Source: a virus (lineage: Duplodnaviria > Heunggongvirae > Uroviricota > Caudoviricetes). Taken from it: a DNA stretch of 9,792 nucleotides. The translations under genes and the position numbers were made by a program. A model generated the notes under the pieces. The model saw only the letters and a list, made by a program, of their open reading frames with translations, made no database searches and was not told the origin of the DNA. Every line of letters starts with the position of its first letter. The first letter of the stretch is position 1. The stretch lies in IMG/VR virus record IMGVR_UViG_2606217116_000003. One strand, 5' to 3'. Below are positions 1-9,792 of the stretch, piece after piece.

Positions 1-1164
1 TTACGCCTTCTTTATATCCTCCATAATTCCACAGTGGGACATATTTGGGACATTATCACCAAAAATGTCGTCTATTTTCCTTGCATGCTCTGTCAAATGA
101 TTAGGCGCAAGGTGAGCATACCTACGAACCATTTCTATGGACTCCCATCCGCCCATTTCCTGAAGCACAGATAATGGGACGCCTGACTGGATCAGCCAGC
201 TTGCCCAGGTGTGTCTGAGGTCATGGAAACGGAAATCTTCAATTCCTGCACGACGACAAGCTGATAGCCATGATGTCTTGCTGTCGATGCGCATCTTCCT
301 GACCGCAGGCGTTGATGTTCCATCTGCTCGCTTAGCCGCCTTGGTATGTACAAACACCCATTTGTGATGCTTGCCTATTTGATCACGCAACACTTTACAG
401 GCGGTATCGTTCAGCGCCACACCAATGGCGCGGTTTGATTTGCTCTCTTCTGGATTCACCCAGGCAACTCGTCGCTGCATGTCGATTTGTTGCCATTCCA
501 GATTTATGATGTTCGACTTTCTCAGACCAGTTGCCAGCGCAAACTTGACGACAGATTTCAGTGGTTCGGGGCACTCATCAATAAGGCGTTTTGCTTCCTC
601 CTTTTCCAGCCATCTGACTCGCTTGTTTCTGACCGCTGGTATCTTGATGACAGGCGCTTTTTCCAGCCACTTCCAGTCGCGTTCTGCAGCACGGAGAATG
701 GCCTTTATCATGGCAAGATGCTTTGCCTTTGTCTGAGTTGATACTGGCTTTGGTTCATAAACAGGCGGTTCTTTACCTTTCCTGATGGCGGCCTGAACTT
801 TCTGTTTCCATATTTCTTTCGTCTTTCTGTTATGCATTCTGCTTACAGCAGAGTAAATCTTTGCCTCCGAGATATCTTTAAGCCTTATACCCTCAAAATG
901 TTCAAGCCAGAACTCAATCCGGCTTTTATCTGAATCGAGAGATTTTTTATCAGCTTTTTCCTCAAGCCATCTTAGGCAGGCCTCTTCAAAAGTGACATCA
1001 GGTAAATCCCCTAGCTTTTCTACTCGCCAGAGTTCTGCTTTTCGCTTGTCGTGCAACTCCTGAGCTTGCCGCTTGTCCTTTGTGCCAAGAGATTCCTTAA
1101 TTCGTTTCCCGCCCGGGAGCGAATACGAGGCATACCATATTTCATTTCTGCGGAAGAGTGACAT
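1..1164 (-). CDS. int: Phage integrase, tyrosine recombinase (P22/DLP12-type lambdoid Int), 387 aa
   Basis: Full-length ORF from ATG at 1164 to stop at 1-3. Translation has the tyrosine-recombinase catalytic signature (R in ...ATGLRKSNI..., [11 protein letters not shown], ...VRRYAHL). N-terminus [23 protein letters not shown] matches recalled DLP12/P22-type integrases. Gene ends at the window edge, so att is off-window. Confidence 0.93.
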
Positions 1165-3276: not shown

Positions 3277-3443
3277 ATTATCGGCATCGATAAAGCAGCG
3301 GGTGCCTTCATCTGCAAGATCTTTAGAATAACGGGTACCGTGGCATTTGAAGAGAAGTATGGCTCCCAGCTGGAGCTGATATTTCGTTTTATCGATCGCG
3401 CACTGGCGATTGGTGTGCTGGCCTGATTTTGTGGAGAAAGTTA

Positions 3444-3827
3444 ATGCGTGATATTCAGATGGTTCTTGAACGTTGGGGAGCGTGGGCGGCTAATAATCAT
3501 GAAGATGTGACCTGGTCGTCCATTGCCGCCGGTTTTAAGGGATTAATTCCTTCAAAAGTAAAATCTCGCCCGCAATGTTGTGACGATGACGCGATGATCA
3601 TTTGCGGGTGCATGGCCCGTCTGAAAAAGAACAACAGCGATTTGCACGATTTATTAGTAGATTATTATGTAGTCGGTATGACATTCATGTCACTGGCAGG
3701 TAAGCATTGCTGCTCTGATGGTTATATCGGGAAAAGGTTACAGAAGGCTGAGGGCATAATTGAAGGGATGTTAATGGCATTAGATATCCGGTTAGAGATG
3801 GATATCGTTGTTAATAACTCTAATTAA
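3444..3827 (+). CDS. quuD: Late-gene antiterminator Q (DLP12 QuuD-like, 127 aa)
   Basis: ATG at 3444 with GGAGAAAG RBS; the track's TTG at 3429 is rejected as the start. Small Cys-rich protein ([12 protein letters not shown]...HCCSDGY) recalled as matching DLP12 Q. Position immediately upstream of the late/lysis region fits. Confidence 0.75.
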
Positions 3828-3878: not shown

Positions 3879-4015
3879 CAAAAATAAAGGGTAATATATA
3901 ACAGAAGGTTTATATAGTTAGAAGCAAGGTTGTGCTTCTAAAGGAAGTGGCTGGAGGGACCATTTATATGTGGGGGAGCCACCCCCCCCCGCAACATATC
4001 TTTTTCGTAATCAGA

Positions 4016-5113
4016 TTAGAACTGGTAAACCAGACCTACAGCAACGATGTCATCAGTGCTTACACCGAGTGCTTTAGTGAAGTCATTTTTGTCAAGCAGG
4101 TTGATTTTGTAATCAACGAAAGTAGACATATTTTTGTTGAAGTAATAGGTTGCACCTACATCAACATATTTGACTAAGTCCTGATCGCCCCATACTCCAA
4201 GATCCTTACCTTTAGATTGCAGGTAAGCAACGGACGGACGCAGACCGAAATCGAACTGATATTGTGCAACAGCTTCGAAGTTTTGGGCTTTATTAGCAAC
4301 GAAGTGATCAGCAAATACAGTCATATTCTGGGTTTCAGAATAGGTAGTGGCCAGGTAAATGTTGTTAGCGTCATATTTCAGACCTGCGGCCCAAACTTCT
4401 GCATTTTTACCGGAAGCAAATACTTCAGGAAGAACTTTCCCTGCATTAACTTGAGTGTCGGTACGATCAGATTTCGCATAAGTTGCACCGATACCGAATC
4501 CTTCGTATTCATAGGTAGCAGAGAAACCGAAGCCATCACCGTTACCTTCAGTGTAGTTATCGAAATCGCTACGATCGTTTTTGCCTTGGTACTGAGCAGC
4601 AAAGTTCAGACCATCAACCAGACCAAAGAAGTCGTTGTTACGATAGGTTGCAACACCAGTGGTGCGACCAGTCATGAACACATCTGTTTGGGTCCAGGTA
4701 TCGCCACCGAATTCTGGCAGAACGTCAGTCCACGCACCGATGTCGTATGCTACACCGTAGTTACGGCCGTAATCGATTGAGCCGTAGTCACCGAATTTCA
4801 GGCCTGCAAATGCAAGACGGGTTTTGTCTTTGGAGGAACCTTGAGATTCAGCGCGGTTGCCTTTGAATTCATATTCCCACTGACCGAAACCAGTCAGTTG
4901 ATCGTTGATTTGGGTTTCACCTTTGAAGCCAAGACGGGCATAAGTAGTATCACCATCATCTGCATCATTAGAGGAGAAGTAGTGCTTAGCATTAACTTTC
5001 CCGTACAGATCCAGCTTGTTACTGTCTTTATTATAAATTTCAGCTGCCTGAGCAGACATCGCCATCAGTACTGATGCAGCTACAGCAGAAATTGCCACTG
5101 TTAATTTTTTCAT
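4016..5113 (-). CDS. nmpC: Outer-membrane general porin, NmpC/Lc (OmpC/OmpD family), prophage moron, 365 aa
   Basis: True start is [23 protein letters not shown] (signal peptide) at ATG 5111-5113; the track's upstream start at 5173 adds 20 aa with no signal-peptide logic. Classic porin motifs and C-terminal ...VGLVYQF. Appears intact. Confidence 0.9.
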
Positions 5114-5540: not shown

Positions 5541-5574
5541 AAACCCGCCGTCGAGCGGGTTTTTCCATTTTTTG
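5541..5574 (+). terminator. tR'-like intrinsic terminator upstream of the lysis genes
   Basis: Stem AAACCCGC/GCGGGTTT (8 bp, 6-nt loop) followed by TTTCCATTTTTTG, on the + strand about 110 nt upstream of the holin start. Confidence 0.7.
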
Positions 5575-5685: not shown

Positions 5686-5901
5686 ATGAAATCCATGGAT
5701 AAGTTAACAACGGGTGTCGCCTATGGCACCTCAGCAGGTAGTGCCGGGTACTGGTTTTTACAGCTGCTAGATAAAGTCACGCCCTCACAGTGGGCGGCAA
5801 TTGGAGTGCTGGGTAGCCTGGTATTTGGCCTGCTGACGTACCTGACAAACCTTTATTTCAAGATTAAAGAAGATAAGCGCAAGGCTGCGAGAGGTGAATA
5901 A
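5686..5901 (+). CDS. S: Class II holin / pinholin with dual-start motif (phage 21 S-like, 71/68 aa)
   Basis: GAGGTGGGG RBS, then MKSMDK... giving Met1 and Met4 starts (antiholin/holin pair). Two transmembrane segments ([19 protein letters not shown] and [17 protein letters not shown]), charged C-terminus. Stop overlaps the next ATG (TAATG). Confidence 0.85.
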
Positions 5902-6125
5902 TGTCGCCATCATTACGCAAGGCTGTAGCAGCTGCTATTGGTGGTGGGGCTGTTGCCATAGCGTCTGTGCTCATCACTGGTCCGAGTGGTGACGATGGTC
6001 TGGAAGGTGTCAGCTACATACCATATAAAGATATTGTTGGTGTATGGACTGTATGTCACGGGCATAACCGCGATTATCTCCGCTCTGGTTATCTGCATCA
6101 TCGTCGGCCTGTCATGGGCTGTTAA
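5901..6125 (+). pseudogene. R: SAR-endolysin (R21-like lysozyme) remnant: N-terminal SAR domain and catalytic-triad region only
   Basis: First about 55 codons ([55 protein letters not shown]) match a SAR endolysin N-terminus. The reading frame then runs out of frame into Rz-derived sequence and stops at 6125. The C-terminal lobe of the enzyme is absent. Confidence 0.75.
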
Positions 6126-6516
6126 TCATTACCGTGATAACGCCATTACCTACAAAGCCCAGCGCGACAAAAATGCCAGAGAACTGAAGCTGGCGAACGC
6201 GGCAATTACTGACATGCAGATGCGTCAGCGTGATGTTGCTGCGCTCGATGCAAAATACACGAAGGAGTTAGCTGATGCGAAAGCTGAAAATGATGCTCTG
6301 CGTGATGATGTTGCCGCTGGTCGTCGTCGGTTGCACATCAAAGCAGTCTGTCAGTCAGTGCGTGAAGCCACCACCGCCTCCGGCGTGGATAATGCAGCCT
6401 CCCCCCGACTGGCAGACACCGCTGAACGGGATTATTTCACCCTCAGAGAGAGGCTGATCACTATGCAAAAACAACTGGAAGGAACCCAGAAGTATATTAA
6501 TGAGCAGTGCAGATAG
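5986..6516 (+). CDS. Rz: i-spanin Rz homolog lacking its native start; frame open upstream into the endolysin remnant
   Basis: From about 6067 the translation ([40 protein letters not shown]...QKYINEQCR) matches recalled lambda Rz nearly residue for residue, but the native MSRV start is missing. Upstream in-frame starts exist (GTG 5986, ATG 5995) inside out-of-frame endolysin sequence. Confidence 0.75.
6275..6457 (+). CDS. Rz1: o-spanin Rz1 lipoprotein, embedded in the +1 frame of Rz
   Basis: AAGGAG RBS then ATG at 6275. [20 protein letters not shown] lipobox followed by a proline-rich segment ([15 protein letters not shown]). 60 aa, matching recalled lambda Rz1. Confidence 0.88.
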
Positions 6517-6547: not shown

Positions 6548-6841
6548 TTATTGTGAGCAATACACACGCGCTTCCAGCGGAGTATAAATGCCTAAAGTAA
6601 TAAAACCGAGCAATCCATTTACGAATGTTTGCTGGGTTTCTGTTTTAACAACATTTTCTGCGCCGCCACAAATTTTGGCTGCATCAACAGTTTTCTCCTG
6701 TCCAATTCCCGAAACGAAGAAGTGATGGGTGATGGTTTCCTTTGGTGTTACTGCTGTCGGTTTGTTTCCAACAGTAAACGTCTGTTGAGCACATCCTGTA
6801 ATAAGCATTGCCAGAGCGGCAGAAAACAACATTTTTTTCAT
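6548..6841 (-). CDS. bor: Bor lipoprotein (serum-resistance-associated, Iss family), 97 aa
   Basis: True start is the internal MKKMLFSAALAMLITGC (lipobox) at about 6841, not the track start at 6889. Remainder matches recalled lambda Bor (...ETITHHFFVSGIGQ...LEARVYCSQ). Confidence 0.9.
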   Translation of the reverse strand: MKKMLFSAALAMLITGCAQQTFTVGNKPTAVTPKETITHHFFVSGIGQEKTVDAAKICGGAENVVKTETQQTFVNGLLGFITLGIYTPLEARVYCSQ

Positions 6842-7200: not shown

Positions 7201-7395
7201 TTATTCATCATCACTTTGGATTGATGTATATGCTCTCTTTTCTGACGTTAGTCTCCGGCGGCAGGCTTCAATGACCCAGGCTGAGAAATTCCCGGACCCT
7301 TTTTGCTCAAGAGCGATGTTAATTTGTTCAATCATTTGGTTAGGAAAGCGGATGTTGCGGGTTGTTGTTCTGCGGGTTCTGTTCTTCGTTGACAT
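7201..7395 (-). CDS. ylcI: Small basic protein, YlcI/DUF3950-like (64 aa), adjacent to cos
   Basis: 64-aa ORF (MSTKNRTRRTTTRNIRFPNQMIEQINIALEQKGSGNFSAWVIEACRRRL...). The basic N-terminus followed by a short helix is reminiscent of ribbon-helix-helix proteins. Conserved position just upstream of cos in lambda-like genomes, as recalled. Confidence 0.55.
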   Translation of the reverse strand: MSTKNRTRRTTTRNIRFPNQMIEQINIALEQKGSGNFSAWVIEACRRRLTSEKRAYTSIQSDDE

Positions 7396-7783: not shown

Positions 7784-8303
7784 ATGGAAGTCAACAAAAA
7801 GCAGCTGGCTGATATTTTCGGTGCGAGTATCCGTACCATTCAGAACTGGCAGGAGCAGGGAATGCCCGTTCTGCGAGGCGGTGGCAAGGGTAATGAGGTG
7901 CTTTATGATTCTGCCGCCGTCATAAAATGGTATGCCGAAAGGGATGCTGAAATTGAGAACGAAAAGCTGCGCCGGGAAGTTGAAGAACTGCGGCAGGCCA
8001 GCGAGACAGATCTCCAGCCAGGGACTATTGAGTACGAACGCCATCGACTTACGCGTGCGCAGGCCGACGCACAGGAGCTGAAAAATGCCAGAGACTCCGC
8101 TGAAGTGGTGGAAACCGCATTCTGTACTTTCGTGCTGTCGCGGATCGCAGGTGAAATTGCCAGTATTCTCGACGGGATCCCCCTGTCGGTGCAGCGGCGT
8201 TTTCCGGAACTGGAAAACCGACATGTTGATTTCCTGAAACGGGATATCATCAAAGCCATGAACAAAGCAGCCGCGCTGGATGAACTGATACCGGGGTTGC
8301 TGA

Positions 8304-8329
<26 letters not shown>
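7784..8329 (+). CDS. nu1: Terminase small subunit Nu1 (DLP12 NohD-like), 181 aa, intact
   Basis: MEVNKKQLADIFGASIRTIQNWQEQGMPVLRGGGKGNEVLYDSAAVIKWYAERD... is the lambda Nu1 winged-HTH N-terminus. Full length with normal stop, 190 nt downstream of cosN. Confidence 0.95.

Positions 8330-9792
<1,463 letters not shown>

Follow-up and report, generated by a model that had tools for sequence, protein, structure and literature searches.

A pseudogenised lysis cassette in a DLP12-family prophage remnant of Escherichia coli

The stretch of DNA analysed here (the window, 9,792 nucleotides) represents what is left of a lambdoid prophage from the DLP12 family, integrated beside tRNA-Arg (argU) and fimZ, as can be recognized from its open reading frames and from matching annotated records. 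Within it, the stub of the endolysin gene rrrD and the start-less Rz gene rzpD constitute a pseudogenised lysis cassette of the pinholin, SAR-endolysin and spanin module typical of phage 21 and DLP12. We are confident that this cassette bears a loss-of-function deletion scar in a recently decaying prophage, as a result of neutral or mildly favoured erosion and with no new function. According to the mechanism that we propose, a single event of illegitimate recombination or replication slippage at a 2-bp TA microhomology would have deleted 340 bp, spanning the C-terminal two-thirds of rrrD and the overlapping start of rzpD: the endolysin would have been lost and Rz very probably left unmade, with EssD and Rz1 remaining translatable. 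This deletion would then have been inherited as one haplotype together with two larger ones, affecting respectively the immunity and replication genes and the region from terminase to tail fibre, and the three-scar haplotype would be confined to a small sub-branch of one E. coli lineage. As such, the scar is an ordinary and already annotated one that matters little in itself; it is of use as a well-documented case in which a small number of microhomology-mediated deletions, all in one E. coli lineage, took apart a complete lambdoid prophage, and the haplotype can be used as a lineage marker.

The features of the window, in order of position, are the following.

1-1164, minus strand: intD, integrase
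Between intD and quuD in the gene listing: early genes of the yfdT/yfdR type
3332..3337, unstranded: second deletion scar, 7,567 bp missing, mapped by alignment to fuller loci
3444..3827, plus strand: quuD, Q-type late antiterminator, intact (PGAP annotation in the matching record KSC9)
4016..5113, minus strand: NmpC-like porin gene, intact cargo between Q and the lysis genes (PGAP "porin", WP_000737266.1)
5686..5901, plus strand: essD, phage-21-type pinholin, intact (PF04971, 121 bits)
5901..6125, plus strand: SAR-endolysin (lysozyme) stub of 74 aa (PGAP "lysozyme, incomplete, missing C-terminus")
6064..6516, plus strand: remnant of the Rz gene (rzpD, i-spanin; PF03245, 183 bits)
6065..6066, unstranded: junction of the lysis-gene deletion, 340 bp missing, TA microhomology (base-by-base comparison)
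6275..6457, plus strand: Rz1 (rzoD, o-spanin lipoprotein), intact, inside the Rz gene in another frame (PF06085, 72 bits)
6548..6841, minus strand: iss/bor serum-resistance lipoprotein gene, intact cargo (PF06291, 107 bits; PGAP "iss")
7201-7395, minus strand: ylcI
7784-8329: nohD
Upstream of the third deletion scar: stub of the terminase large subunit gene
8549..8550, unstranded: third deletion scar, terminase large subunit gene cut to a 5' stub that continues into a tail-fibre gene
8561..9792, plus strand: IS3-family insertion sequence, specific to the strain of the window and running off its end

The two cargo genes, porin and iss/bor, bracket the lysis cassette and are both intact; the Bor/Iss product matches its Pfam family over the full length. 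Over both of them the KSC9 record is identical to the window, and its protein accessions for the two products match those of complete prophages. The rest of the 8.56 kb is likewise identical between the window and KSC9, apart from a cluster at positions 3953-3987, downstream of the porin gene, in which the window has 7 mismatches and 1 indel with respect to every other copy examined. The cluster breaks two hairpins (GTGGCT..AGCCAC and GGGAGGC..GCCTCCC) and leaves nine consecutive C. A test for an inversion was negative, and the cluster has the look of noise from sequencing or assembly in the source of the window.

The endolysin stub and the deletion junction

The initial annotation had described the ORF next to the holin gene as some 55 residues of a SAR-type endolysin, inclusive of the signal-anchor helix and of the E-D-T catalytic region, which run out of frame into Rz near its codon 5, with about 0.3 kb missing between the two. 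Comparison with known structures and with an intact cassette bears out this description and makes it exact. Residues 1-55 of the stub product (positions 5901-6065) align without gaps, and nearly identically, to the structures of RrrD (4ZPU) and of the phage 21 lysozyme (3HDE), with an E value of 5.5e-31, while the sequence is divergent after that point. The SAR helix shows as a peak of hydropathy over residues 7-28, as it does in intact RrrD, and a direct reading of the translation of 5901-6065 shows that the catalytic triad E35, D44 and T50 is retained, in the numbering of the P21 enzyme. The remainder of the product consists of 19 out-of-frame residues read across the transmembrane region of Rz, up to a TAA stop at 6123-6125.

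A complete two-lobe lysozyme domain, on the other hand, is not found: the stub covers only positions 3-26 of the 125 in the Phage_lysozyme profile (PF00959), with a score of 22.2 bits against a curated cut-off of 22.3, whereas the intact protein encoded at locus L002 reaches 153 bits. The stub is unable to form the two-lobed lysozyme fold, as what is left is the anchor helix and a fragment of the catalytic lobe. Since the domain is partial and its score falls under the cut-off, the stub represents a pseudogene remnant rather than a functional member of the SAR endolysins. It is also already known as a broken gene, because RefSeq/PGAP flags an incomplete lysozyme pseudogene in the genomes that carry it.

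The intact cassette of the same locus L002 was used as the reference for the mapping of breakpoint and microhomology that had been proposed earlier. The window and L002 share 417 identical bases on the left and 496 on the right of a 340-bp gap, with a 2-bp overlap, TA, at 6065-6066. The missing segment comprises codons 56-165 of RrrD with the stop codon, and codons 1-3 of Rz with the first base of codon 4: this is the endolysin C-terminal lobe and Rz start whose loss had been noticed. From the junction on, Rz reads ...(I)TAIISALV, which with respect to the stub is the +1 frame. A fusion of stub and Rz by programmed frameshifting was considered and then rejected, for want of precedent and of any evident slippery or stimulatory element.

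Coding capacity of the remaining lysis genes

EssD has the attributes of a pinholin. Its match to PF04971 (121 bits) extends over positions 1-63 of 64 in the profile, its translation opens with MKSM and so can be read directly as having the dual start M1 and M4, and the Shine-Dalgarno pairing of its gene amounts to −7.9 kcal/mol; the protein accession, WP_000839596.1, is the same in intact prophages. Rz1 has its own start inside Rz, a signal peptide ending in Cys, a match of 72 bits to PF06085, and a strong Shine-Dalgarno pairing of −8.3 kcal/mol. Judging from these signals, both EssD and Rz1 are predicted to be still translatable. The body of Rz is full-length as well (PF03245 positions 1-126 of 126, 183 bits), with its hydrophobic helix and the whole periplasmic coiled-coil domain. 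The view that the pinholin, the rest of Rz and Rz1 had come through intact is thus upheld at the level of the coding sequences; the further statement that the element keeps its membrane-active lysis proteins stands for EssD and Rz1, but is overstated for Rz, which has neither its ATG nor a start with a usable Shine-Dalgarno sequence.

The case of Rz deserves closer inspection. Codons 1-3 are missing from the remnant, and with them the native ATG and the ATGA at which the stop of R overlapped the start of Rz. We looked for either a start with a ribosome-binding site or coupling to an upstream stop, and the Rz remnant has neither: all in-frame candidate starts have anti-Shine-Dalgarno pairing of −3.8 kcal/mol or weaker, against −5.4 to −8.3 kcal/mol at native starts. 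The best alternative, ATG 5995, reaches −3.8 kcal/mol versus −5.4 for the native Rz start, and the upstream in-frame candidates sit within the translated stub. The first in-frame ATG 3' of the junction, at 6214, corresponds to native residue 54 and lies past the membrane helix. Because the ATG and the ATGA overlap are gone, the upstream starts are poor, and the next ATG is past the membrane helix, Rz is very probably not made. An extended Rz initiated at ATG 5995 would retain a plausible hydrophobic signal-anchor helix, and a residual trace of functional protein may arise from there. We know of no activity of Rz1 without Rz.

A minor annotation problem is exposed by these observations. In the carrier genomes rzpD (WP_052318784.1) is treated by RefSeq/PGAP as an intact CDS that begins at an ATA at 6064, despite the deletion of the native ATG; this ATA start is probably a homology-driven annotation artefact.

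Distribution, linked deletions and a complete prophage at the same site

The occurrence of the junction in other genomes, a search that the initial annotation had also suggested, was studied with a probe of 54 bases, 27 per side, which is too short for one half alone to seed a megablast match. A full match was found in 19 of 5,426 complete E. coli genomes (0.35%), always in the chromosome and in every case at the argU locus; a 30-base stretch of the Rz side was still matched in 395 other genomes. The exact junction is present as well in one IMG/VR contig. A collection with one genome per species gave no match to it, and thus that scan provides no evidence for the junction outside E. coli. As to origin, the carriers were obtained from humans, from animals (pigs, chickens, a cat) and from water (river water and wastewater), in several countries and by different laboratories. 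We also asked how often the retained and the deleted parts of rrrD occur across E. coli: the retained 5' 166 bp were found in 5,100 places and the adjacent, deleted 166 bp in 5,844, so that there is no surplus of 5' stubs over endolysin bodies in this species, in what is a rough comparison, because the two segments differ in divergence and hence in megablast sensitivity.

Two further scars accompany the 340-bp deletion. At the second one (3332-3337), 7,567 bp are absent with respect to the complete prophage of strain ARS-C301 described below, with a 6-bp microhomology, CGGGTA; the repressor, cro, the replication genes, RusA, KilA-N and most of DUF968 are removed, and the 3' part of yfdQ (DUF2303) is joined to the 3' remnant of the DUF968 gene. 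At the third one (near 8549/8550), which is shared with KSC9, the first ~80 codons of the terminase large subunit run into a tail-fibre gene, with the loss of every head gene and of most tail genes. Junction probes for the second and third scars match exactly the same 19 genomes as the probe for the 340-bp deletion, and none of the 5,426 complete E. coli genomes has only one or two of the three. The presence of all three scars in the same 19 genomes identifies them as one haplotype.

The IS3-family element of the window is inserted 11 bp past the third scar. None of the 5,426 complete genomes has its junction, so that the source strain of the window is not among them. A single Rfam match was obtained in the window, isrC (150 bits, 8629-8751), inside the orfA region of this element; no RNA family was recognized by the scan within the lysis genes or close to them.

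The regions flanking the remnant indicate the lineage in which the haplotype is found. Among six sampled carriers the flanks diverge by 0.03-0.11 SNP/kb over 18-45 kb, versus 8.9 SNP/kb to a non-carrier. Such near identity could be taken to mean that the carriers form an exclusive clone, a possibility that is ruled out by the fact that the fimZ-fdrA flank haplotype, inclusive of the IS3 next to ylbG, is ~100% identical in many non-carriers. Among these are an O177:H21 strain, MS6192 and MS6193, the latter two presumably of ST101. As the flank is common to many non-carriers, the carriers are better described as a sub-branch of a wider lineage.

One non-carrier with this same flank, ARS-C301 (locus L012, 1284-30251), carries in the same argU site a prophage that appears to be complete: its genes for immunity, replication, head and tail are present, as is the essD-rrrD-rzpD cassette in intact form. 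Over the three segments retained in the remnant, the identity of this prophage is 99.84-99.96% to the KSC9 remnant and 99.67-99.94% to the window. So close a match to a complete prophage in the same position suggests that the remnant is a recent derivative of a complete phage, and we infer its descent from a prophage like that of ARS-C301. It follows that the neighbouring lysis genes are intact because the event is recent, and not because of selection; by the same token, there is no divergence left from which selection could be measured.

The loss of the second segment also bears on transcription. Since the 7.6-kb deletion took away the early promoter region that feeds Q (quuD), the late operon has probably been deprived of its usual transcriptional drive. 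A scan for promoters and terminators recognized fewer promoter-like sites than in shuffled sequence and nothing interpretable as a late promoter. The sole feature to emerge from it is a terminator-like hairpin on the plus strand at 5541-5562 (AAACCCGC..GCGGGTTT) with a T-run after it, located ~120 bp upstream of essD, which may be a terminator read through by Q-modified polymerase.

Erosion, its alternatives and known systems

Bobay and colleagues are reported to have described, in 2014, how prophages become pseudogenised and how lytic genes are eroded in the cryptic ones. The gene content of the remnant can be read in this light. It keeps the integrase, a tail-fibre fragment and the porin and iss cargo, it has gained an IS, and it has lost the lysin, terminase, portal and head genes. 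A survey in the literature reports that incomplete prophages lose lysin, terminase and portal genes, retain those for integrase and tail fibre, and are enriched in transposase genes (PMC7744054); the match between the two patterns supports erosion.

According to a different explanation, the loss of the repressor would have led to leaky transcription of the late genes and made the lysis cassette a danger that cells without endolysin and Rz survived, so that the 340-bp deletion would have been under positive selection as a mutation against lysis. Two observations are in its favour: the deletion is fully linked to the loss of the immunity region, and in incomplete prophages the lysis and lysin genes are preferentially lost, which has been ascribed to host-level selection (PMC7744054). 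We nonetheless consider this explanation unlikely. The pinholin gene was left untouched, and the triggering of the pinholin alone collapses the proton-motive force (PMC9636201), so that removal of R and Rz would be no rescue for a cell that expresses the cassette. Moreover, the 7.6-kb deletion that took the repressor also took the early promoter region driving Q, and with that region gone the late operon is expected to be quieter, not leakier. The pinholin is reported, by Park and colleagues in 2007, to be lethal without the endolysin. Finally, the single origin of the allele, its 0.35% frequency and the lack of a general excess of 5' stubs in E. coli also speak against this explanation.

There is a slim chance that the allele reduced to pinholin and Rz1 is not neutral, and that more vesicles or a smaller release of peptidoglycan fragments would help a livestock-associated sub-lineage; the pinholin might even act as a depolarising effector of non-lytic death or stress. 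Should this be the case, the carriers would provide a natural test of a DLP12-type pinholin without its endolysin. The only lead to a phenotype of the deleted allele is the vesicle phenotype of an engineered K-12 mutant (PMC7918800).

The same mutant is relevant to the proposal, made in the initial annotation, of a non-lytic domestication rather than random decay, by which the host would have shed the murein hydrolase and kept the pinholin and spanin parts for a membrane role, such as vesicle release or controlled depolarisation. In K-12, loss of ybcS (R) and rzpD/rzoD leads to a 2.4-fold increase in outer-membrane vesicles (PMC7918800), from which it can be argued that the deleted allele could have a phenotype, and the good ribosome-binding sites retained by EssD and Rz1 are also compatible with a role for their products. 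However, the roles documented for the DLP12 module, namely cell-wall (peptidoglycan) maintenance, vesicle control and antibiotic-induced vesicle release, all need the endolysin (PMC7918800, PMC12287860). With its start deleted Rz is probably null, which leaves Rz1 without a partner, and the retained genes are essentially unchanged with respect to the complete prophage, so that their integrity reflects recency; the flanks of the deletion, identical to those in the intact cassette, have had no time to decay. A domesticated module would be recognized by purifying selection, by a wide distribution or by recurrence; what we find is a rare allele of single origin, in one haplotype of three linked scars seen in 19 of 5,426 genomes, and no stub excess. 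On these grounds we set the proposal aside as very improbable.

An assembly or sequencing artefact that conceals an intact gene in the real genome, a reading to which the local noise at 3953-3987 in the source of the window lends some colour, and which includes the sequencing frameshift envisaged earlier, is excluded for practical purposes: the same junction recurs in an IMG/VR contig and in 19 complete genomes that were assembled independently and differ in laboratory, host and country of origin, and a clean 340-bp deletion is unlike a frameshift-type error.

The preferred explanation, recent erosion by deletion, can finally be examined against the systems to which the remnant is related. The lysis module of DLP12 in K-12 shares with it the integration site (tRNA-Arg next to fimZ, with the intD integrase), the gene order (quuD, porin, essD, rrrD, rzpD/rzoD, bor/iss) and the protein families. 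The four lysis genes of K-12 are all intact and reportedly functional (PMC7918800), whereas in the remnant R is cut after residue 55 and Rz is start-less. As the remnant derives from a prophage that was recently complete in its own lineage, it is not necessarily the old DLP12 remnant of K-12. With the cassette of phage 21 (S21, R21, Rz/Rz1) it shares the pinholin family, inclusive of the dual-start motif, and the N-terminal 55 residues of the SAR endolysin, but it is without endolysin residues 56-165; in their absence there is no enzyme for the pinholin to release. Rz and Rz1 of the remnant are lambda-like with respect to the sequence of lambda Rz, and matches to lambdoid phages support this assignment.

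The closest genotype to have been studied is the engineered K-12 mutant in ybcS and rzpD/rzoD (Pasqua et al. 2021, PMC7918800), in which the holin is present and the endolysin and i-spanin are absent; that mutant, however, additionally lacks Rz1, and its 2.4-fold rise in vesicles was measured in K-12 and not in the carrier strains. With respect to the generic erosion of cryptic prophages (PMC7744054), we see the same loss of immunity, morphogenesis and lysin genes, the same retention of integrase, tail-fibre and cargo genes, and the same gain of an IS: there is no material difference between the two, and the remnant is a specific instance of that process.
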